64,000 nucleotides of DNA from Promethearchaeota archaeon. GTDB lineage: Archaea > Asgardarchaeota > Thorarchaeia > Thorarchaeales > Thorarchaeaceae. The DNA lies in contig JBHLPF010000002.1 of the NCBI GenBank assembly GCA_048939765.1, forward strand, positions 1-64,000. Reading direction: 5' to 3'. The notes below the pieces were generated by a model. The model had not been told where the DNA came from, did not search any database, and was given only the letters and a program-made list of their open reading frames with translations. Of the stretch, positions 24,165-35,888 are shown piece by piece; the stretch's first letter is position 1; each line of letters opens with the position of its first letter. The position numbers were made by a program, and so were the translations under genes.

Positions 24165-24716
24165 ATGACTAGCGCAGACCAATCGGATGTCCATGTGATT
24201 GATGAGGTCGACACAGAGTTTGTTGACATGATCAAGAGAATAGGTGGTCCGAATATTCAAAGCTGCTATCAGTGTGGGACATGTAGTGGGAGCTGCCCTG
24301 CAGGAGCTCGTACAAACTACTTGGTTCGAGGTATCATCAGAAAGGCTCTACTTGGTCTAAAAGAAGATGTGATTTCTGGCATGGAGCTATGGTTCTGCAC
24401 TACATGCTACACCTGTACTGATCGATGTCCTCAGGATGTTCAGCCCACAGAGGTCATCAAGGCGATCCGAAATGTTGCAGTTGCCGAAGGATATATGCTC
24501 GAGCCTCATCGAAAGGTGGGGATGAACGTGCTCACGACAGGACATGCAGTTCCTCTCGGCGGTGAAACATGGGAAGGTCTCAGAAAGAAGGTTGGCCTTG
24601 ATGAAAAGCCGCCAAACGCAAGTAGCTTCCCTGAAGCCATTGAGGAAATAGTCAAGATTGCTAAAAAGAGCGGTTTCGACAAGCTCGTTGCTGAGAAGGA
24701 AGAGAAGGAGGAGTGA
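24165..24716 (+). CDS. hdrC: Heterodisulfide reductase subunit C (copy 2)
   Basis: CYQCGTCSGSCP, WFCTTCYTCTDRCP, GHAVP. Confidence 0.93.
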   Translation: MTSADQSDVHVIDEVDTEFVDMIKRIGGPNIQSCYQCGTCSGSCPAGARTNYLVRGIIRKALLGLKEDVISGMELWFCTTCYTCTDRCPQDVQPTEVIKAIRNVAVAEGYMLEPHRKVGMNVLTTGHAVPLGGETWEGLRKKVGLDEKPPNASSFPEAIEEIVKIAKKSGFDKLVAEKEEKEE

Positions 24717-24722
24717 AGCAAG

Positions 24723-25670
24723 ATGGCGAAGAAACCAAAGTTCCTACATTTCCTAGGGTGCATAATCCCCCATAGATATCCAAGCGTACAGAAGGCAGCC
24801 GAGCTTGTGTTTGAAGACCTCGACATGGATCTCCTACCGATGGAGAAAGCCAGCTGTTGTCCGGCTCCTGGAGTCTTTGGCTCATTTGACAAAGTGACTT
24901 GGGCATCAGTGGCAGCACGAAACCTCACCATTGCAGAGGAGGCGGGAGCAAACATTACCACGGGATGCAACGGATGCTTTGCAAGTCTTTGGGACGCTGA
25001 CCACGAGCTCAAACATGATGAAGAGCTCAGAGCAACAGTAAATGAGAACCTGGCTGAGATTGGGCGGGAGTTCAAGGGCACAATTGAGGTCACTCATTAT
25101 GTTGATGCACTCTGCAACACGGCAGGATTGGAAAAGATTCGAAACCGAGTTACACGCCCGTTTGAAGGTGTACGAATGGCACTCCATCCCGGTTGTCATT
25201 GGATGCGGCCCAAGCTGGTCAAGAAGAAGGATGATTCAGAGAGACCGCATATATTCCGAGAACTCTGTGAAACCTCTGGTGCAACCTATGTGCCGTACAA
25301 AGACGAGCTAATTTGCTGTGGCGCTGGAGGAGCAGTTAGGACTGCAGACGTCAAGACCGCCCTTGACTTCACGAAACAGAAGTTTGATAGTCTCCTAGCC
25401 GCGGGAGGGGCTGACATCATAGTTACTCCATGTCCATTCTGCGAACTTCAATTGGACCTTGGACAGGTTGAGATTCAGAAACACTTTGAGGCAGAGTATC
25501 ATTTCGATGTCCTGCACGTCATGGAGCTACTCGCCCTAGCCTTCGGACATGAGCCTGATGAATTTGGTCTTGCCACTCACTTACAGTACCTGCAAAGGAA
25601 GAGCCAACCAAATTGGGAGAAGCTTGGCATTGAGATTGAAACGCCTAAGGATGCGGCAGTCTCCGAGTAA
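24723..25670 (+). CDS. hdrB: Heterodisulfide reductase subunit B (copy 2)
   Basis: FLGC, CCPAPG, GCNGC, HPGCH, CCGAGG, PCPFC. Confidence 0.93.
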   Translation: MAKKPKFLHFLGCIIPHRYPSVQKAAELVFEDLDMDLLPMEKASCCPAPGVFGSFDKVTWASVAARNLTIAEEAGANITTGCNGCFASLWDADHELKHDEELRATVNENLAEIGREFKGTIEVTHYVDALCNTAGLEKIRNRVTRPFEGVRMALHPGCHWMRPKLVKKKDDSERPHIFRELCETSGATYVPYKDELICCGAGGAVRTADVKTALDFTKQKFDSLLAAGGADIIVTPCPFCELQLDLGQVEIQKHFEAEYHFDVLHVMELLALAFGHEPDEFGLATHLQYLQRKSQPNWEKLGIEIETPKDAAVSE

Positions 25671-25687: not shown

Positions 25688-26710
25688 TTATGTTTCCATC
25701 TTGTGGACGACGTTCTCGCGGCCATCTCGAAATCGCTTGATTAGGCCCCTCTCCTCGAGCGAGTTCAGCAGCATGCTTGCCATTGATTGAGACATATTCA
25801 ACTCCTCATAAATCTCTCTCTGAAGACATGACCCTCCCTTCTTATCTAGTAAGGATAGAACCTGCTGTTCCTGACTTGAAACAACACTGATTGTGCTCTC
25901 TCTCCTAGTGCGGAGCAGTCTGAGGGCCGCAGGTAGCCTCTCAATCAATAATGCAGCAACTGCACCAATTGCCACACCTAACCCCGAAAAGAGGAAAGGA
26001 TTAACTGGATCTGAAGATTCGGTCTGCAAAAGGCCAGTAGGCAGTTGATACTTCACGATAAAGGCTTGTTCGTTTCCTGGGAGTAGAGTCGGGGTTTCCC
26101 ACGTGAAGACTATCCTGTTTCCATCGGTGAAATTGCTTGTTGGTATAGGGAACAGTGGCGCTGGTGCATCCGCTTCCAATGTAGCGTGAGCAGGGAGGTG
26201 AGTCCTGAAGGTCAGACCCTGTATCTCATTCAAGGGCCGTATGTAATAGATGAAATGATTCGTACACAATGGTCCAGTTGGCGTCGGATCCTGACGTTGT
26301 TGGAGTTCATCAGTTGTCAATGTGAGCGAAAGATGGCTCGTACTATTGAACGGAATCAAAGATGCTGAAGAAACTCTGACAACAGTATATCGCTCCTCAG
26401 GCGCAAGAACTGCTTCAGCATGACTGCCTCCAAGAACACTGCTTGTCAAATTCAAACTCCGAATATCTAGCCTCAGGTCGATGAAGCTCAGATCGACTAG
26501 CCCATCATTCACAATATCCGCTTCAATTGAGATGCTTGTAGTGCAATTCTGGTTTAGAATGGCATCTATCACCATATTGGAGAGCGAAAATTGCTGTGTC
26601 TGACCCTGAACTGGAATAGGAGGTCCTATCACAATTAGCATCACAAGAAAGATGGTTGCTAATGTGAATGTCTTTGCGTTCATGGTGGGCATCGTCAGCA
26701 ATCCTGTCAT
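25688..26710 (-). CDS. Membrane-tethered winged-HTH protein with an extracellular domain
   Basis: Signal/TM, beta-rich domain, TM (LFSGLGVAIGAVAALL), then EQQVLSLL..GG..LQREI..MSQS.AS.LL..LEERGLIKR..GREN.V. Confidence 0.75.
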   Translation of the reverse strand: MTGLLTMPTMNAKTFTLATIFLVMLIVIGPPIPVQGQTQQFSLSNMVIDAILNQNCTTSISIEADIVNDGLVDLSFIDLRLDIRSLNLTSSVLGGSHAEAVLAPEERYTVVRVSSASLIPFNSTSHLSLTLTTDELQQRQDPTPTGPLCTNHFIYYIRPLNEIQGLTFRTHLPAHATLEADAPAPLFPIPTSNFTDGNRIVFTWETPTLLPGNEQAFIVKYQLPTGLLQTESSDPVNPFLFSGLGVAIGAVAALLIERLPAALRLLRTRRESTISVVSSQEQQVLSLLDKKGGSCLQREIYEELNMSQSMASMLLNSLEERGLIKRFRDGRENVVHKMET

Positions 26711-26790: not shown

Positions 26791-28044
26791 TTAACGTTTC
26801 TTTACTGCTATTCCTACACCAAGTACTGCAACAAGTGAGATGGCAGCAATTGCCGGGAGTACTATGCCCTCTGGGATAATGAGTCCACCATTCCCTGTAG
26901 GTGCTGCAAGCTCCTCAAATCTCATAGATGGGTCGTGTAAGAGCGACCCGCCGTCAAAGTTGGGGTAGGAGAAGAATAGCAGAAGAGCATTTCCGTTGGT
27001 CCAGTACGACGCTTCGACATCAACTGCCTCTTGGCTTCCGCCAGGAAGGGTCATGACAGCTTTATCCAGCCAGCGATAGAATCCGTGTGTTGTATCTGTT
27101 GAATCTTCGACCAGGGAGAGTTCCTGAACATCATCATGATGCCCATCATCGTCCTCATCGACATCCTGGAATTTCTTGCCCCAATCCTCCTCCGGCATTA
27201 AATCCTCAGAGTCACGGTTCTCATCCCCCTCATCCTCATGAAGTCTGAAGTGATGATCAGAGTCATCCTCAGAGGCGAGATCCTCTTGCAGGAAGTTCAG
27301 TATAGCGACATGAGATGTTTCAGAGAGATACGGGAAGTTTCCGATCTCGATGTCGATTTTCAACTCGACACCTCCTAGCACTGTGTAATTGGCCTTGACG
27401 CCTTCGTCATCGCTGACAGTCCCATTGTAGTCATCTAGGTACATATGGGCGTAGAATTGGAGGGTCATTCCTTCGAAACGAGTGAAGTTGATGTCTTCGT
27501 CGCTACTCAAGATGAAGGGCTCTTCAGGCTCATCCTCCCCTCCGTAACCGGGCATCCAGTCCTTAAACCAGTCGTCCTCCCAATCTTCACTCAGCCCGCC
27601 CTTTGTATACGAAGCATAGACCTCAGTGTTATGTCCAAGTTCATCAGTGACTGCTCCAGTCTGAAGGACCCAATCAAAGGCGTCCAGCGGAGCAAAGTCT
27701 AGGGTTTCATTAACCTGGTAGACATTATCACCGTTGAGATCTTCAAACTCAACAATCATCAGATAGCTCACAAGGAATCGGGCGCGGCTTCCATTGCTAT
27801 CGGATGAGTACCAGAACTGGAAACTCGGTTGTTCACTATCAAGCCGTACAGTGGCTATGTCGGTCTGTATCCAAGCTGTACCATCGCTATCTCTAGAGTA
27901 TTCAGGCTCATGTGCCTCTTCGTACTCGTCGTCATCGGTATGATCGTCACCATTATCGCTTTGTGCAAGTACACTCATTGGAGAGAGCACCAAGACCAGA
28001 AATGTGAGAACAGCTGCATATTTCAGAAGTCTGGGATGTTTCAC
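26791..28044 (-). CDS. Acidic secreted protein with a C-terminal membrane anchor
   Basis: GTG start MKHPRLL plus signal peptide, D/E/H-rich tracts, DLNGDN motif, C-terminal TM followed by KKR. Confidence 0.7.
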   Translation of the reverse strand: MKHPRLLKYAAVLTFLVLVLSPMSVLAQSDNGDDHTDDDEYEEAHEPEYSRDSDGTAWIQTDIATVRLDSEQPSFQFWYSSDSNGSRARFLVSYLMIVEFEDLNGDNVYQVNETLDFAPLDAFDWVLQTGAVTDELGHNTEVYASYTKGGLSEDWEDDWFKDWMPGYGGEDEPEEPFILSSDEDINFTRFEGMTLQFYAHMYLDDYNGTVSDDEGVKANYTVLGGVELKIDIEIGNFPYLSETSHVAILNFLQEDLASEDDSDHHFRLHEDEGDENRDSEDLMPEEDWGKKFQDVDEDDDGHHDDVQELSLVEDSTDTTHGFYRWLDKAVMTLPGGSQEAVDVEASYWTNGNALLLFFSYPNFDGGSLLHDPSMRFEELAAPTGNGGLIIPEGIVLPAIAAISLVAVLGVGIAVKKR

Positions 28045-28617
28045 CGTATCACCAAGACAAGTCTTGAATTGAGTATATATAATGAAGATGAAGAAGAGTG
28101 CTGAATTCCGCCTGCTAGAAGCCCCCATAGTCCTCCTAGGGCTAATAGAACCTTCATGATGCTTCAAATTGTCCCGTGGAAACACAATAGTTGGATACAA
28201 CGAGCATCTAGGGAACACCCTGAGGGGCTATTATCAGAAGAAGGTTCTCTTTGGAAACTAGTTCTTGATTCGCTGCGGCAGAACAATCTCAATTTCAGAG
28301 AGATCATGCGTCCTGTCAACATAATCCCTTGATTTCATCCGTGTAAGATATGCCCGCGTGTATAGCCGCCTGCACTTCATCTGCGTCTCCCGCATCGGAT
28401 GTTATCCCTGTAATATATGAGGTCACCTATTTGAAATAGTTAAGTCTGGGACTCGAAAATGGTTTGGCGCCAATCAATGCATGTAAAACTCTCGAGAATA
28501 GAGGTAGCAGCTGTTTTTGGCCTCTAGCGATACCCTAATTGCCAGCTTCGTGTTCCCTTCCATCGCCTGCTGAGGGGAAAGACTTGTCCAGACTGGAAAA
28601 GGTCTGGTCAGGAGGAA

Positions 28618-29058: not shown

Positions 29059-29709
29059 ATGGCGACCATACTGATGAAGCTATCAGAGGATAGAGCAGCA
29101 ACTCAGTACGATAGATGGATATCTCTCCTCACATTAAGACAGGACACGTCACTCAGGAATTATGTCATCGGCCATCTCTTGCCTGGGAAAGGCACCTTGC
29201 TTGATGTGGGCTGTGGTACAGGGAAACTCCTAGTGGAAGCTGGACGACGAGGAATGCGAGGAGTTGGAGTAGATACTAATAGAGAGATGCTCCAGATTGC
29301 TAAAGAACACGTCAAGAGGCACAATTTGACAAGACGTATCCATCTCAAATATGGAGATGCCACCTCACTGGAGTTTGATGATGGAGCTTTTGATGTAGTA
29401 GTGAGCACTTTGATGGTCAGCGAACTACAGTCAAGACAACTGAAGGCATTCTTGAGAGAGGCGGCAAGAGTGGTTGCTCCCGGAGGGCAGGTCGTTATTG
29501 GAGGCGAGGGAATTCCAGAGAGTAAACTCATGGGACCTTTCTTCGGACTGATACGGAGCTTCGGCTTTAGATTGGTTTCACGATGGAGTGATATTGAATC
29601 TCATCCCCATCACAATCTTCCTGCAGCAATGAGTTCTGTTGGTCTGAATCCCAGGTATAAGGTGATTCTGATGGGGGGTCTCTTCGAGTTGTTCGTGGCG
29701 GAGGCATGA
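29059..29709 (+). CDS. Class I SAM-dependent methyltransferase (corrinoid-protein-associated, CpaM-like)
   Basis: LDVGCGTG, GVD, GDA..L.F.DGAFDVVVS..MVSEL, RVVAPGG; stop overlaps the next ATG (ATGA). Confidence 0.85.
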   Translation: MATILMKLSEDRAATQYDRWISLLTLRQDTSLRNYVIGHLLPGKGTLLDVGCGTGKLLVEAGRRGMRGVGVDTNREMLQIAKEHVKRHNLTRRIHLKYGDATSLEFDDGAFDVVVSTLMVSELQSRQLKAFLREAARVVAPGGQVVIGGEGIPESKLMGPFFGLIRSFGFRLVSRWSDIESHPHHNLPAAMSSVGLNPRYKVILMGGLFELFVAEA

Positions 29710-30692
29710 AATTGAAGAAGGGTTGGAAGTACTACGCGTGTCTACTTGGTTCACAGCTGATGTGGCCCGCGTTAGCCATTAAATCACCGCAAGGTCTATT
29801 CTCCTTTAATGAAGCGGACGCTGACTCACCGGTGCTCATCACCACTAATTACTATATGACCGTGTTCAGAGTGACTCAGGAGATTCAGAAGCAGAACCTG
29901 AGATGCCATCTTCTCGTTGTTGATGGTCATGGAATTAATGTGTGGTGTGGAAGCAGAGGAGGTCATGTGAACACTGACTCTGTACTATCCGCGATAAGCT
30001 CAACCAAGCTGGAGAGTATTGTTTCTCATAGAAATCTCATCCTCCCTCAACTAGCGGCAAGCTCAGTTTCAAAGGCTGTTCTATCCGACAACGGCTGGCA
30101 TGCTGTCTTTGGACCCGTAGATATCGTGGACGTCGCTGAGTTCATCGAAAATGAAAACAAGAAGTCGCTCGAACAAAGTGTTGCTAAATTCGATATCCAC
30201 AAGCGAATGGAGTGCAACCTTGCTCATCTCATCTTTGAAACCACGATGTTTCTGTTTATGACACCCATTTTCTGGGCACTCGGTCTAATGGGTGGCGTCT
30301 TCCTGTCCTGGTCCAACTATTGGATGGCAAATCTTCTACTGTTACTTCTTGGAGTATGGATTCTGGGCACCGCTATGGCAATTGTTGATCCAAAGATGCC
30401 AACATCTTCTGGTTATGTGAGGGGTGCGATTATTGGAGTACTGGCACTGATTATATGGAAGACTGCTCTATTAACCATGGCATTCCTTTCAAACACGGTG
30501 ATTTCGCAATGGGCCTGGCTGGACACAAGCGGAATCACGGTGTTGGGTCTATCCTTATTTGTGGGCTTCAATTGGGGCGGTGCTACGCCTCAACTAGGTG
30601 AAGACCAGATGACTCGTGATATAATCGCAGGCATTGGAACACTGATTGTTCTCTTTATTCTGGGGTTCTACTTCCCTGTGGGTATCTTTTGA
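29706..30692 (+). CDS. HgcA-like corrinoid-binding membrane protein (CdhD/CFeSP-like domain plus TM helices) with a non-canonical cap helix
   Basis: SPVLITTNYYMT, LLVVDGHGINVWCGSRGG, SHRNLILPQLAA, VFGPV, followed by about five TM helices. Confidence 0.82.
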   Translation: MKLKKGWKYYACLLGSQLMWPALAIKSPQGLFSFNEADADSPVLITTNYYMTVFRVTQEIQKQNLRCHLLVVDGHGINVWCGSRGGHVNTDSVLSAISSTKLESIVSHRNLILPQLAASSVSKAVLSDNGWHAVFGPVDIVDVAEFIENENKKSLEQSVAKFDIHKRMECNLAHLIFETTMFLFMTPIFWALGLMGGVFLSWSNYWMANLLLLLLGVWILGTAMAIVDPKMPTSSGYVRGAIIGVLALIIWKTALLTMAFLSNTVISQWAWLDTSGITVLGLSLFVGFNWGGATPQLGEDQMTRDIIAGIGTLIVLFILGFYFPVGIF

Positions 30693-30703
30693 GGTGAGAA
30701 TTA

Positions 30704-30928
30704 ATGATAATCTATGATTACAAAGCCTGTTCAGGGTGCAGAGAGTGCTTGAATGTGTGTCCAAGGGGCGTCTGGGGCTTCATTGAGAGCACCAAGAAGG
30801 CGGATCTTGTCAATCCCAAGAAATGTATTGATTGTACTTCCTGCGAGTTTCAGTGTCCAGTGCGCGCTATCCGGATTGAGAGAGCTCTCATTCCAAGGAG
30901 CCCGCGTATTATAGGCTTGCCCGAATAA
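30704..30928 (+). CDS. 2x[4Fe-4S] ferredoxin in the HgcB position
   Basis: CSGCRECLNVCP and CIDCTSCEFQCP; GAGGTGA Shine-Dalgarno upstream. Confidence 0.88.
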   Translation: MIIYDYKACSGCRECLNVCPRGVWGFIESTKKADLVNPKKCIDCTSCEFQCPVRAIRIERALIPRSPRIIGLPE

Positions 30929-31030
30929 TCCGAGCCTATCATCTGTGAATTCAGATTTCTTTGTCCGATAACAAACATTTTATCATGCTATTCAACCGAT
31001 GCGCATTGTTACGTCGGAGTGGACTAACGA

Positions 31031-34000
31031 ATGGCCGAGTCTGCTACAAAGCCAGTTGTTATCATAGGCGCGGGTATTGCAGGAATGCGTGCTGCACTTG
31101 ATCTTGCTGACATGGGTGTCCAAGTCTTTATGGTCGAGAAGAATCCTTCAATAGGAGGTCATATGTCCCAACTGGACAAGACGTTTCCCACGCTTGACTG
31201 TTCAATGTGCATTCAAGGTCCATGGATGGTCGATTGTTCTCGTCATCGCAATATAGAGCTACTAGCTTATTCTGAAGTCACTGATGTCTCCGGAGGCCCT
31301 GGTGACTTCATGGTCAAGGTTCTGAAGCATACAAGAAGGGTGGACCTCGACAAGTGTACTGGGTGCGGTGACTGCGAGCGTGTCTGTCCCATTGAAGTCA
31401 GAAACGAGTATGACATGGGACTGAAAATGCGGAAGGCAGCCTATATTCCATTTCCACAGGCTGTACCAAACATCGCCACCATTGACATTGAAAACTGCAT
31501 TGAGTGCATGACTTGTGTCAAGACCTGCAAGGCGGAGGCTATCGACTTCGAGATTTCCGATGAGGTTGTCAATATCAATGCTGGATCGGTAATCATTGCG
31601 ACTGGATATGACTTGCTTGATGCGGCATCAGTCCCAGAGTACGGGTATGGACGATTTCCGAATGTTATAACGGCACTGGAATATGAAAGAATGGTTTCAG
31701 CCAGCGGTCCAACGAAAGGTATTGTGATGCGACCATCGGACGGGAAAGAGCCTCATCGAATTGCGTTTATTCAATGTGTAGGTAGCCGAGATGTAAACCA
31801 CTGTGCATATTGTTCGAGAATCTGCTGCACTTATGCTACCAAAGAAGCGATCATCACCAAAGAGCATACTCCTGAGGTCCATATTGATATTCTCTACAAT
31901 GACATTCGAGCATTTGGGAAGGGCTTCGAAGAGTTCGTGGTGAGAGGAGAAACAGAATACGGGATCAACTATGTCAAGGGACTGCCTAGCTATATCACTG
32001 AGGAACCTGAAACCCAAAACCTGATTGTACGACACAGTGATGCAAAAGGTCATGAGGTCCTGAAGGACAGCTACGACCTTGCCGTTCTCTGTCCTGCTAT
32101 GGTACCAAACAAGAACTCCGAACTGATGGAGAAGTTGGGAATAAAGGTAGACCAATACGGATTCATTGAAGGCAAGGGTGATGGGATTGACTCTGTCCAG
32201 ACAGGGGTTCCTGGTGTGCACATGTGTGGAGCCTGTAATTTTCCCAAGGACATCCCTGATTCCGTAGCCCAGGGGAGCGCAGCAGCTGCAATGGCCGCCA
32301 TGGATATCGTTCTGCCAGAGGCCTCAGAGAGCGAGGCTCTTACTGAAGCAGATTTGGAACTCATTGCTGCTGAGCCCCGAATTGGTGTAATAATATGTTC
32401 ATGCGGCATCAACATCGCTGGGACAGTTGATGTTGCAGAAGTCACAGATTATGCAAGTACCCTTCCCGGTGTAGTCTATGCTAAGAATCTTCTCTACTCA
32501 TGTTCATCAGACGCCCAAGACGTCATCAAGGACGCCATAAAGGAACATAACCTCAACCGTTTGGTAGTCGCCTCTTGCACACCTCGAACGCATGAGCCTT
32601 TGTTCCGAGCCACTATCGAAGAGGCTGGCCTCAACAAATATCTGTTCGAGCTCGCGAACATCAGAGAACATTGTTCATGGGTGCATCAGGCTGCAAAGGA
32701 CGAAGCGACCTCCAAAGCAAATGACCTTGTAAGAATGTCTGTTGCACGAGCGAGACTGCTTGAAGCCCAGGAGGAAGCCGTCAGCCAGATTGAGCCAACC
32801 GTTCTAGTCATTGGTGCTGGCGTTTCTGGAATGGCTGCAGCTGACCTCATCGCTCAGAAAGGTTTCAAGGTACTCATTGTTGAGAAGGATGACAAGGTTG
32901 GAGGCTTTCTGAATGAGCTGCGGACAGTCAACTTTGACCATCGCCCGAGTGTGGAAGTGGTAAGTGAGTTCGAGGCGGCAGTTACAGGTAATCCGAATAT
33001 TGAACTGATGCTTAATTCCGAGATAGTTGATGCAAAAGGGTCGATCGGCGATTTTGACATCACCATCAAGACTGGGAAGCAAAAGCAAGAGGTCAAGGTC
33101 GGTGTCGTCATCGTAGCCACAGGTGCTACCGAACTCGTTGAAAAAGGCCTCTACGGCCTGAAGAAGCTGGACAACGTCATCACTGAGGTCGAGTTCAATC
33201 ACAAGATAGCAGACGGTGAAGGAATTGAAGATGGTCAGACCTTTGCCGTCATACATTGCGCCGGATCTCGTGAGGAGGAGTCACTCGAAGGCGCCCGAAC
33301 CTGGTGTTCCGGGATCTGCTGTACAATCGCCTTAGAACACACACTAGAACTTCTTGACAAGTATCCCAATTCTAGGGTCTTCCATCTCTATCGTGACATC
33401 AGAGTGTCCTATGAGGACGAGGACAAATACAGAGAGGCTCGAGAGAAGGGAGTTGTGTTTCTCAGATTTGATCAGGCTAGTCCACCAAATGTGAAGAAAG
33501 GCAAGGACAAGGCGCTACGAGTAGAGGTCATGGACCAGGTTTTCGGTGCCGAGGTGGCATTTGATGTTGACCATGTTGTTCTCTCAACTGCCATGATTCC
33601 ACGAGAGAAGAACAAGGAGATCTCTGAGATTTTCAAAGTCCCACTCAACATGTCGGGGTTCTTCATGGAAGCACATCCCAAACTCCGACCAGTAGATTTC
33701 CAGACAGATGGAGTCTTTGTTGCAGGGACTGCCACTGCTCCAAAGACAATTGCTGAATCCGTGGCTCAGGGTCGAGGTGCTGCATCAAGAGCACTGATTC
33801 CCTTGGCTAGCGGTATCCGGAAGGCTGAGGCCATCGTTTCTGTAGTTGATCCTGAGGTCTGTGTTGGCTGCGGCACATGTGAGATAAACTGTGCCTACAA
33901 TGCTATCGAAGTCGTACCTGGGGACGGCGGTTCTGACTATGCGGTATCCAATCCAGTTCTGTGCGCGGGCTGTGGTAAGTGTGCTGCTGGATGCCCCGCT

Positions 34001-34489
34001 GGAGCCATCACAATGAAGCACTTCACTGACGACCAGATACTGGCTCAAATTCGTTCGGCTTTGGAGGACATGCCCGCCACAGCGTCGAGGATAGTGACGG
34101 TTCTCTGTAACTGGTGCTCCTATGCTGGGGCCGACAGTGCAGGTGTTTCGAGGTTTCAACAGCCTACAACGGTCCGTGACATCCGGGTGATGTGCACAGG
34201 CAGAGTCAGTGTGGCTCACATGCTGGAGGCTTTCAGACTAGGTGCTGACATGGTGTGGATTTCGGGCTGCCACTTTGGAGACTGTCACTATGTCGATGGG
34301 AACGTGTCCTTTGAGCGAAGGTTTGCCATTGCAAGGAAGATCCTTGAGAAAGCAGGTCTGGAGCCTGAGCGACTCCAGTTCACTCAGATAAGTGCAAGCG
34401 AAGGTCCAATCTGGGCGGAGACCGTGAAGAAGCTGACAGAGATTGCAGACAAACTGGGCCCAAGCCCGCTCAGACCAAGGAGGCGATAA
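31031..34489 (+). CDS. hdrA: Double-module HdrA fused to a C-terminal MvhD
   Basis: Two GAGxxG FAD sites, KTFPTLDCSMC, QCVGSR...CSRICC, second module from RIGVIICSCG.NI, ferredoxin motifs, MvhD CNWCSY/RVMCTGRV/GCHFGDCHY. Confidence 0.92.
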   Translation: MAESATKPVVIIGAGIAGMRAALDLADMGVQVFMVEKNPSIGGHMSQLDKTFPTLDCSMCIQGPWMVDCSRHRNIELLAYSEVTDVSGGPGDFMVKVLKHTRRVDLDKCTGCGDCERVCPIEVRNEYDMGLKMRKAAYIPFPQAVPNIATIDIENCIECMTCVKTCKAEAIDFEISDEVVNINAGSVIIATGYDLLDAASVPEYGYGRFPNVITALEYERMVSASGPTKGIVMRPSDGKEPHRIAFIQCVGSRDVNHCAYCSRICCTYATKEAIITKEHTPEVHIDILYNDIRAFGKGFEEFVVRGETEYGINYVKGLPSYITEEPETQNLIVRHSDAKGHEVLKDSYDLAVLCPAMVPNKNSELMEKLGIKVDQYGFIEGKGDGIDSVQTGVPGVHMCGACNFPKDIPDSVAQGSAAAAMAAMDIVLPEASESEALTEADLELIAAEPRIGVIICSCGINIAGTVDVAEVTDYASTLPGVVYAKNLLYSCSSDAQDVIKDAIKEHNLNRLVVASCTPRTHEPLFRATIEEAGLNKYLFELANIREHCSWVHQAAKDEATSKANDLVRMSVARARLLEAQEEAVSQIEPTVLVIGAGVSGMAAADLIAQKGFKVLIVEKDDKVGGFLNELRTVNFDHRPSVEVVSEFEAAVTGNPNIELMLNSEIVDAKGSIGDFDITIKTGKQKQEVKVGVVIVATGATELVEKGLYGLKKLDNVITEVEFNHKIADGEGIEDGQTFAVIHCAGSREEESLEGARTWCSGICCTIALEHTLELLDKYPNSRVFHLYRDIRVSYEDEDKYREAREKGVVFLRFDQASPPNVKKGKDKALRVEVMDQVFGAEVAFDVDHVVLSTAMIPREKNKEISEIFKVPLNMSGFFMEAHPKLRPVDFQTDGVFVAGTATAPKTIAESVAQGRGAASRALIPLASGIRKAEAIVSVVDPEVCVGCGTCEINCAYNAIEVVPGDGGSDYAVSNPVLCAGCGKCAAGCPAGAITMKHFTDDQILAQIRSALEDMPATASRIVTVLCNWCSYAGADSAGVSRFQQPTTVRDIRVMCTGRVSVAHMLEAFRLGADMVWISGCHFGDCHYVDGNVSFERRFAIARKILEKAGLEPERLQFTQISASEGPIWAETVKKLTEIADKLGPSPLRPRRR

Positions 34490-34492
34490 GAG

Positions 34493-35011
34493 ATGACAGA
34501 GTCGTGGGGTCAGTTCAAATCATTTGAGGGCAAGAAGCTCGAGGCTCTGGATGCAGAGTTCACAAAGGAGGTTTCCAACCTACTTGGTGGGGCGGATCTC
34601 ACAGCATGCTTCCAGTGTGCCAAGTGCAGTGCAGGCTGTCCGGTGAGTGACAAAGTCAACATTCAGGTCCACGAGTTAATGCGAATGCTTCTCTTCGGAC
34701 TCCAGGAGGTCCTAGACACCGACATGGTATGGTTGTGCACGACCTGCTATACCTGTCAGGAGCGATGTCCACAAGGCATAGAGATCACTGACATCATCTT
34801 TGGCCTAAAGAACATGGCATTCAAGAAGAAGATAGCTCCGCCCGGTTATGTCGCCGCTAGGAAGTCATTGTATGACAACGGGAAATTGTACGAGCCTACT
34901 GAATGGGAACGTGAGGACCTAGACCTCGATGACGTGCCGGAGTTGAATGTAGAGGACACGCGAAAAGTCCTGGACAAGATGGGTCTGATGAAGTTGGAGG
35001 AGGATGAGTGA
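34493..35011 (+). CDS. hdrC: Heterodisulfide reductase subunit C (copy 3)
   Basis: CFQCAKCSAGCP, WLCTTCYTCQERCPQ. Confidence 0.9.
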   Translation: MTESWGQFKSFEGKKLEALDAEFTKEVSNLLGGADLTACFQCAKCSAGCPVSDKVNIQVHELMRMLLFGLQEVLDTDMVWLCTTCYTCQERCPQGIEITDIIFGLKNMAFKKKIAPPGYVAARKSLYDNGKLYEPTEWEREDLDLDDVPELNVEDTRKVLDKMGLMKLEEDE

Positions 35012-35888
35012 GATGACCCAGAGCTACGAGGTGTTCCTAGGGTGCGCAATCCCCAACCGCTTCAACAACTATGAGGCATCGATGCGTGCAGTGGCCAAGG
35101 AACTCGGTGTGAAACTCATCGACTTCGAAGGCGCATCATGTTGTGGTACAGTGGTCCTGAAGTCGATTGATGAGAATAGCTGGCTCTCCATGTCAGGCAG
35201 GAACATTGCTCTGGCTGAGAGTAGAGGTCATGATATCGTGACCCCATGTAACGGCTGCTTTGGTTCACTCAAAGACACGGATCATGTACTGCATGATGAC
35301 GAGACCTATCGAAAGAAAGTCAACAGCGCCTTGAAATCACTAGGACTTGAATACACAGGAAAGACCAAGATACGCCATTTTGTCGAGGTCCTCTATGACA
35401 TGAAAGACGACATAAAGGCAAAGATTGTGCGACCGCTCACCGGGCTCAGAATCGCCTTTCATCCTGGCTGTCATCTGATTCGACCATCAAACGTAGCAGG
35501 CTTTGATGATCCAGAACTCCCAAGAAAGGTAGATGAACTCCTTGAACTCACTGGTGCGCAAAGCGTTCCATGGGGTGCAAAACTCAATTGTTGTGGATCT
35601 CCTCTCTTGATCGCAAGTGAAGAAGTGGCAACAGACGTTCTGAAGGACAAGATGATCTCTGCGAAAGAAGGGAGAGCCAATGTTCTCGTGACCAACTGTC
35701 CAGCTTGCCATACACAGTTCGATGTACAGTTGATTGGGATGAAGGATGACAATGGTGAGTCTCTCGAACTCCCAGCTATGTTTGTCACTCAGATTCTTGG
35801 GCTAGCGATGGGTCTTGACCATGAACAGCTCGGCCTCGAACTGAACAGAATCTCTTTGGACCCAATCAGTGATATACTTGGAATCTAG
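35004..35888 (+). CDS. hdrB: Heterodisulfide reductase subunit B (copy 3)
   Basis: FLGC, CCG, PCNGC, HPGCH, CCG, NCPAC. Confidence 0.9.
   Translation: MSEMTQSYEVFLGCAIPNRFNNYEASMRAVAKELGVKLIDFEGASCCGTVVLKSIDENSWLSMSGRNIALAESRGHDIVTPCNGCFGSLKDTDHVLHDDETYRKKVNSALKSLGLEYTGKTKIRHFVEVLYDMKDDIKAKIVRPLTGLRIAFHPGCHLIRPSNVAGFDDPELPRKVDELLELTGAQSVPWGAKLNCCGSPLLIASEEVATDVLKDKMISAKEGRANVLVTNCPACHTQFDVQLIGMKDDNGESLELPAMFVTQILGLAMGLDHEQLGLELNRISLDPISDILGI

Follow-up and report, generated by a model that had tools for sequence, protein, structure and literature searches.

What does an HgcAB-type protein pair do when it is encoded together with an S-adenosylmethionine (SAM)-dependent methyltransferase of its own, and is such a set a mercury methylase, a new kind of system or a variant of a known one? 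This question is raised by three genes at positions 29059-30928 of a 64,000-nucleotide stretch of DNA (hereafter the window) from a Promethearchaeota archaeon of the Thorarchaeia (contig JBHLPF010000002.1), whose source assembly comprises 3.37 Mb and is 88.5% complete. They encode a class I SAM-dependent methyltransferase, an HgcA-like corrinoid membrane protein and an HgcB-like ferredoxin. On the basis of sequence comparison, the trio is a divergent, split Thorarchaeial variant of the already catalogued CpaM / HgcAB-like system; it is a genuine, conserved feature on which selection acts. Native HgcAB chemistry is most obviously to be sought in non-mercury paralogues of this type.

Organization of the locus

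The first gene (29059..29709, + strand) encodes a CpaM-like methyltransferase of 216 amino acids (aa), for which the best match is the NCBIfam model NF043040. It is followed by the gene for the HgcA-like protein (29706..30692, + strand; 328 aa), with a predicted N-terminal corrinoid-binding domain and five C-terminal transmembrane helices, and by that of the HgcB-like 2x[4Fe-4S] ferredoxin (30704..30928, + strand; 74 aa), which ends in a conserved Cys-free tail. A stop/start overlap, ATGA, at 29706-29709 joins the first two genes, and an 11-nucleotide gap (30693..30703, + strand, ggtgagaatta) containing the Shine-Dalgarno-like word GGTGA precedes the third; overlap and gap were both re-read from the sequence, and the tight coupling of three co-oriented genes reported in a preliminary description of this DNA stands. 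That description had also made recurrence of the arrangement a point to be checked, and it was found in 30 loci of other genomes; the trio is therefore not a chance juxtaposition.

Family assignment of the three proteins

The methyltransferase matches Pfam Methyltransf_25 (E = 4e-23) and aligns over residues 4-215 with positions 3-215 of the 216 in NF043040, "corrinoid protein-associated methyltransferase CpaM" (142.5 bits, E = 1.2e-41), the runner-up NCBIfam family reaching 70.7 bits; its score lies below the curated NF043040 cut-off of 180 bits. The middle protein matches the C-terminal, corrinoid-binding part of Pfam PF03599 (CdhD; E = 2.5e-18, profile positions 266-381 of 387) and the NCBIfam models for HgcA and HgcAB-like proteins with E-values of 1e-43 to 1e-53, falling short of the cut-offs of NF043039 HgcAB_like (181.6 vs 285 bits) and NF040863 HgcA (149.1 vs 275 bits). 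The ferredoxin belongs to the Fer4 families (E ~1e-11, Pfam) and scores 53.5 bits against the B-part of NF043039, as it does against NF040864 HgcB, where the cut-off is 99 bits. NF043039 is defined as an "HgcAB-like fusion protein" and its cut-off of 285 bits applies to the whole single-chain model, whereas in the window the A part (181.6 bits) and the B part (53.5 bits) are separate genes, all scores being below cut-off.

These best matches (CpaM, HgcAB-like/HgcA and HgcB) bear out the earlier recognition of a corrinoid protein and a ferredoxin of the HgcAB type that have a class I SAM methyltransferase dedicated to them. They do not make the trio a new kind of system, since NCBIfam already holds NF043040 and NF043039 and published trees show a fused-HgcAB clade (PMC10083202), in which Thor- and Lokiarchaea are included. 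The catalogued system, to which the Pyrococcus furiosus-type "fused HgcAB" of the mercury literature belongs, matches the window trio in its three domains and their order and shares with it the CpaM signature residues and a Lys-free WC-x3-G cap. What sets apart the clade of the window protein (hereafter the Thor clade) is a GSRGG cap and a Cys-free ferredoxin tail of its own, a long branch and a distribution that, in the searches made, is limited to Thorarchaeia.

The corrinoid protein and ferredoxin compared with HgcAB

All of the HgcA-layout motifs listed in the preliminary description were found again in the middle protein: SPVLITTNY (residues 41-49), GINVWC (76-81), HRNLILPQL (108-116) and FGPV (135-138). 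The cap-helix motif NVWCGSRGG, read from the sequence, occupies 29937..29963 (+ strand), inside the interval 29931-29966 assigned to the cap helix, and its Cys81 is the presumed lower axial ligand of cobalt. An AlphaFold2 model (predicted local distance difference test, pLDDT, 76) consists of a Rossmann-like domain and five long helices at 164-322, and a hydropathy scan agrees with five C-terminal transmembrane helices. The top fold match of this model is the HgcAB model 9a0b_A (327 columns, full length; E = 1.4e-10), followed by corrinoid iron-sulfur protein (CFeSP) large subunits over ~130 residues (PDB 4djd_C, E = 2e-9). The latter (CdhE / AcsC) have a homologous C-terminal corrinoid-binding domain, whereas the window protein lacks their N-terminal [4Fe-4S] or TIM-barrel part and has a transmembrane domain and a Cys ligand.

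Residues N78, W80 and C81 are invariant in 77/77 HgcA-type sequences compared. The positions kept throughout the superfamily (G76-x-N-x-W-C81, H108, P114-Q-L, G136-P, F162, R167, P229, P232, G240 and G292) indicate that the corrinoid site and the core of the transmembrane domain are both conserved. With HgcAB proper (NF040863 / NF040864) the trio thus has in common the Cys-bearing cap helix, five transmembrane helices, a separate downstream gene for a dicluster ferredoxin and invariants in both domains, as well as SAM as the likely methyl source (PMC11588087). It differs in adding a dedicated SAM methyltransferase and in a ferredoxin without the extra cysteines of HgcB.

The pair is non-canonical at several levels, as had been proposed: the cap Lys is lost, the extra HgcB Cys are absent, all scores are below cut-off and the protein lies outside the true-HgcA clade (approximately unbiased (AU) test, p = 0.0155). 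The Hg-MATE high-stringency motif for the HgcA cap is N(V/I)WC(A/S)(A/G/S)GK (PMC10087281), with which the NVWCGSRGG of the window does not agree. Position 85 is Gly in the window protein and in 41/48 HgcAB-like sequences but Lys in 22/22 sequences with the true-HgcA motif (WCAAGK); position 174 is His in place of the Glu found in 21 of these 22, and position 236 is Gly in place of a Phe present in all 22. The exchanges at 85 (Lys to Gly), 174 (Glu to His) and 236 (Phe to Gly), together with the lost ferredoxin Cys, provide a shortlist of candidate residues for substrate choice relative to true HgcA. The WCGSRGG cap is no isolated oddity, as it is one among dozens of WC-x3-G variants in the HgcAB-like radiation, GSRGG being the signature of the Thor clade.

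The ferredoxin contains exactly eight Cys in two CxxCxxCxxxC motifs, the second being CIDCTSCEFQC; on re-reading, all eight sit in the two cluster motifs, so the tail RALIPRSPRIIGLPE is free of Cys, as noted before. The tail pattern IP[KR]xPxI is kept across the Thor clade. Neither the HgcB-type extra Cys after cluster 2 nor the C-terminal Cys pair is present; in HgcB, C73 and C94/C95 have been named as crucial (PMC11588087).

Phylogenetic placement

A first tree was computed by an IQ-TREE quick search under the posterior mean site frequency (PMSF) approach from 77 HgcA-type sequences, the outgroup being CdhE of the same genome. The sequences bearing the true-HgcA motif form a clade of their own, with a Shimodaira-Hasegawa-like approximate likelihood ratio (SH-aLRT) support of 100. 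The Thor clade is monophyletic (SH-aLRT 100) on a long stem of 1.21 changes per site and falls inside an 89-supported group of proteins in which the HgcA-like domain is fused to the ferredoxin (A-B), to the methyltransferase (MT-A) or to both (MT-A-B). When a second clade of unfused proteins from the Asgard genus g44 was added, the two clades became sisters (82) inside the A-B / MT-A / MT-A-B group (87). The window protein is accordingly placed within the fused / CpaM-associated radiation, with moderate support (SH-aLRT 87-89) and on a long branch. A tree constrained to unite the Thor clade with true HgcA is worse by 37 log-likelihood units and fails the AU test (p = 0.0155; LG+G4, 38 rows, the tested group having been defined after the first tree was seen). 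With the long-branch caveat, the split three-gene form may have a single Asgard origin.

Two points of the preliminary description can be read off these trees. Nesting within canonical HgcA, named there as an outcome that would contradict it, was not found, the protein standing outside the 100-supported clade (AU p = 0.0155). The suggestion that the trio is close to the native function of the HgcA lineage gains no backing, as the Thor clade branches off within the radiation, on a long branch, and is not basal.

The placement also bears on whether the trio could be a functional mercury methylase, that is, a cryptic HgcAB. The trio shares with HgcA its fold, the Cys ligand and the invariant residues of the transmembrane domain, and SAM would be the methyl source in both systems. 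Against this, Gly replaces the cap-helix Lys that is invariant in true-HgcA-motif sequences, the ferredoxin lacks equivalents of HgcB C73 and C94/C95, and the protein stands outside the true-HgcA clade, in a position from which a joint clade is rejected, with scores far under the HgcA and HgcB cut-offs. In addition, PMC10087281, citing Podar 2015 and Gilmour 2018, states that tested relatives with fused HgcAB-like genes made no methylmercury in culture. A mercury-methylating trio is therefore regarded as highly improbable, and screens for hgcA that rely on hidden Markov models (HMMs) alone should leave the Thor clade out of mercury-methylator counts.

Distribution and gene linkage

Among the matches listed from a search of 5.8 billion proteins, 39 cluster representatives of the middle protein have 56-94% identity, the named members being Thorarchaeota or Promethearchaeota; the cap reads GIN[VA]WCGS[RK]G in 37/37 listed relatives that cover the site. 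After these, identity falls to 34%, and the following matches are methyltransferase-HgcA fusions (~549 aa), A-B fusions (~363 aa) and proteins bearing the true WCAAGKGT motif. The Thor clade amounts to a single representative in a library with clustering at 50% identity, in which only 8 proteins score at E < 1e-30 and 545 at E < 1e-10. When 301 genomes of the phylum were surveyed, that of the window among them, the Thor clade turned up in 12/13 further genomes of the same genus and, within the family, in some of those from three sister genera; in the searches made it was found only in Thorarchaeia.

The second stand-alone clade, that of genus g44 (Asgard family f22), shows 30-34% identity and has the cap GVNVWCSAAGG. 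At its loci (L040-L049, L056-L060) the ferredoxin tail ends in FFAQLI and no Hdr genes are among the neighbors, which include a Ras-family small GTPase, TrmO and MFS and EamA transporters.

Synteny was examined in 30 loci from the two split clades. A CpaM-like gene lies directly upstream in 29/30, and a small ferredoxin gene directly downstream in 28/30, the remaining two loci ending at contig borders. Between the clades the three proteins co-vary, with identities of 29-34% for the methyltransferase, 31-33% for the corrinoid protein and 38-42% for the ferredoxin, and no ferredoxin of either clade has a Cys outside the two clusters. Elsewhere, A-B fusions have a methyltransferase gene for 212-219 aa abutting or overlapping upstream in 3/3 cases examined, and many MT-A and MT-A-B fusions occur among the relatives. 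Synteny and fusions together argue strongly, at the genome level, for a functional link between the methyltransferase and the corrinoid protein. Linkage in other genomes, set as a test beforehand, thus held in 29/30 split loci and 3/3 A-B fusions, besides the fused forms. The near-constant fusion or adjacency of these paralogues with a SAM-binding methyltransferase constitutes independent genomic support for SAM, and the split Thor version, comprising three small separate proteins, is easier than the fusions to express, mix and match.

At loci outside the Thor clade, ArsR-type helix-turn-helix regulators (PF01022 / PF12840) were observed just upstream of a CpaM + HgcAB-like pair in 2/3 cases (L062:1656-2030, L063:2083-2478); an ArsR-like regulator is also known for true hgcAB in P. 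mercurii (bioRxiv 10.1101/2022.10.17.512643).

The CpaM-like methyltransferase and its possible target

Methyltransferase domains from split (18), adjacent (3) and fused (27) forms were compared, a CdhE sequence that had entered among the fused rows being disregarded. All three forms have a common signature, consisting of an N-terminal h-h-[YF]-M-x-x-L-E...Y and of S121-E122, E150, P153 and R166. The window protein keeps M6, E10, Y17, T25, M77, S121-E122, E150, P153 and R166; of these, M6 and E10 hardly vary in any of the CpaM domains compared, fused or adjacent. The N-terminus ATILM-x-L-x-E (residues 2-10, window 29062-29088) is invariant across the two split clades, whose overall identity is ~29%. 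The AlphaFold2 model has a generic class I fold (pLDDT 83), with the conserved N-terminal helices and an insert at 150-185 as its least confident parts; this N-terminal element, of low confidence in the model, may serve for docking or as a lid. The nearest folds are Coq5 (template modeling score, TM, 0.76), phosphatidylethanolamine N-methyltransferase (TM 0.72) and RebM/AtmM, and searches of the PDB by sequence and by fold returned generic class I small-molecule methyltransferases and nothing more specific. The terms "CpaM" and "corrinoid protein-associated methyltransferase" were found in none of the papers searched. An ArsM-like function was considered and rejected, as the arsenic-binding cysteines are absent from the protein, whose single Cys lies within the SAM motif VGCGTG.

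This kinship leads to the possibility that CpaM acts on the final substrate, for instance a metalloid, a quinone or the head group of a lipid, like its relatives ArsM, UbiE and PmtA, while the corrinoid protein and ferredoxin serve it otherwise, for example by activating or reducing that substrate or relaying the methyl group to a second site. Small-molecule methyltransferases (UbiE/MenG, Coq5, phosphatidylethanolamine N-methyltransferase and ArsM-type models) are indeed the nearest known families. However, an ArsM-like arsenic-binding site is missing, the sole Cys being that of VGCGTG, and the family-specific residues also occur in fusions that tether the methyltransferase to the corrinoid domain. 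Since the signature is kept in such tethered fusions, the corrinoid fits as both partner and substrate of CpaM, and action on a separate final substrate is judged quite unlikely.

A proposed mechanism

The reading that we favor, with fair confidence, is that the three proteins form one conserved module, an unfused non-mercury paralogue of HgcAB in which a ferredoxin-reduced corrinoid would be methylated by CpaM with SAM and would pass the methyl group to an acceptor other than mercury. In such a cycle the 2x[4Fe-4S] ferredoxin would bring the corrinoid of the membrane-anchored HgcA-like protein to the Co(I) state; CpaM, with SAM bound, would then present the SAM methyl to this cobalt, so that methyl-Co(III) forms with Cys81 as the lower axial ligand; and the methyl group would finally pass to the acceptor at the membrane face or in the membrane domain. 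Corrinoid binding, SAM as the donor via CpaM, the ferredoxin as the reductant and the class of the acceptor are all inferred from homology and gene linkage. The model is the most economical one because it combines HgcAB homology with an obligatory SAM-binding partner. Purified HgcAB methylates Co(I) with SAM, the resulting methyl-Co(III) is ligated by Cys, and HgcB mediates the electron transfer (PMC11588087), so that a SAM-binding partner of an HgcAB paralogue is chemically coherent. For HgcAB, an analogy has also been drawn (PMC11588087) with cobalamin-dependent SAM methylases (TsrM, class B radical SAM), which have in common with the trio the proposed first half-reaction, SAM + Co(I) -> methyl-Co(III) + S-adenosylhomocysteine (SAH). 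The folds are unrelated, and the trio has no radical-SAM cluster, because both ferredoxin clusters have four Cys ligands; SAM is instead predicted to be bound by the class I Rossmann protein. As to the acceptor, it is probably neither Hg(II) nor a soft metal delivered by thiols, considering that the cap Lys and the thiol-rich ferredoxin tail have been lost.

Several points weigh against this reading. To our knowledge, no biochemistry on CpaM or HgcAB-like proteins exists. All three proteins score under the NCBIfam curated cut-offs, so their function could have drifted. Residues 78-85 of the cap helix are modeled at pLDDT <50, and the exact place of the Thor clade within the radiation is unsure, given the long stem (1.21), inner SH-aLRT values of 82-89 and quick tree searches. 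No recurrent neighbor hinting at a substrate was found at the loci examined. Lastly, true HgcAB obtains the methyl group from SAM unaided by any separate methyltransferase (PMC11588087), hence the role of CpaM could be other than loading of the corrinoid.

A complex prediction for CpaM and the soluble domain of the HgcA-like protein gave a score of 0.00 in two runs, made without controls, and is counted neither for nor against an interaction. Neighboring genes considered as substrate clues (those for a Ras-like GTPase, TrmO, MFS and EamA transporters, an Rce1-like protein and PmbA/TldD) were rejected as not recurrent.

One such other role would be repair: CpaM could use SAM and an electron from the ferredoxin to re-methylate inactive Co(II), while another donor, for instance methyl-pterin or some methylated substrate, provided the methyl group used in turnover. 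The model for such a role is methionine synthase (MetH) with its SAM-binding domain for reactivation, although the fold of that domain differs from that of a class I Rossmann methyltransferase such as CpaM. Corrinoid methyltransferases need reductive reactivation (also discussed in PMC11588087), a ferredoxin is always present in the trio, and in genus g1 and some other lineages of the Thor clade the Hdr genes around the module could supply low-potential electrons. Yet no second methyltransferase of the pterin-binding or MtaA/URO-D type is linked at the loci examined, which weakens an exclusive repair role, and in true HgcAB SAM is the turnover donor (PMC11588087). Repair is thus considered unlikely compared with loading of the corrinoid by CpaM and SAM for turnover.

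Paralogous systems in the same genome

The genome holds two further HgcA-like loci. Contig C37 encodes a 644-aa CpaM-HgcA-HgcB triple fusion (L005:1498-3432, +) with transmembrane helices, a dicluster ferredoxin and the cap WCASEAGK, whose CpaM part, at 250.7 bits, is above the NF043040 cut-off; as it joins all three parts in one chain, it constitutes a Rosetta-stone fusion for the three genes of the window. Contig C59 encodes a 579-aa CpaM-HgcA fusion with the cap WCAARGIH (L001:718-2457, +), followed by a separate 109-aa ferredoxin (L001:2464-2793, +) that is HgcB-like in having CGC after cluster 2 and a ...CCS end. In the trees, methyltransferase-fused proteins of this WCAARG clade stand as sister to true HgcA (SH-aLRT 80), and if a metal-handling methylase is sought in this genome, the C59 fusion with its ferredoxin may be the stronger candidate. 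In a scan of the whole genome no match reached the NF040863 HgcA cut-off (275 bits). Genuine CdhE and CdhD of carbon monoxide dehydrogenase/acetyl-CoA synthase (CODH/ACS) are encoded on contig C49, and no pterin-binding methyltransferase was found near any of the three HgcA-like loci.

Hdr genes and other flanking elements

In the window, the trio is flanked upstream by hdrC/hdrB (24165-25670) and downstream by hdrA-mvhD/hdrC/hdrB (31031-35888), the latter including an HdrA-MvhD fusion of 1152 aa. These flanks are kept in genus g1 and in two metagenome contigs (60-65% identity), and in genus g2 the Hdr genes lie ~4 kb from the trio, beyond a 4-kb insert. No Hdr genes were found within roughly 3-9 kb of the trio in g9, g14 and the g44 clade. 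Hdr as an obligatory partner was consequently rejected as a general feature, being missing near the trio in g9, g14 and the second split clade; it is a possible electron supplier in the window's lineage, outside the conserved module.

A bolder proposal, which we hold to be possible rather than probable, sees in the trio a self-contained SAM-driven machine in which a Cys-ligated methyl-corrinoid would deliver a methyl carbanion or radical onto a non-mercury membrane electrophile, and in this activity the ancestral job of the HgcA superfamily. The electrophile would be, for example, a metalloid or the carbon of a lipid or cofactor, mercury methylation would be a side branch, and in the Thor lineage the adjacent HdrA-MvhD/HdrBC complex would feed in low-potential electrons.

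Between the ferredoxin gene and hdrA, at window positions 30967-30984, lies an 18-nucleotide element, GATAACAAACATTTTATC, with the inverted repeat GATAA-N8-TTATC. It is identical in 10/13 same-genus loci scanned (window included) and in one metagenome contig, and in these loci the flanking proteins have diverged to ~65% identity. The inverted repeat is probably an operator, and its position suggests that hdrA-mvhD has a regulated promoter of its own.

Divergently upstream of the trio, two genes on the - strand encode a 340-aa membrane-anchored MarR_2/DUF7343 regulator-like protein (window 25688-26710) and a very acidic secreted or anchored protein of 475 aa (window 26791-28218). Two metagenome contigs of the Thor clade have this pair ahead of the trio as well.

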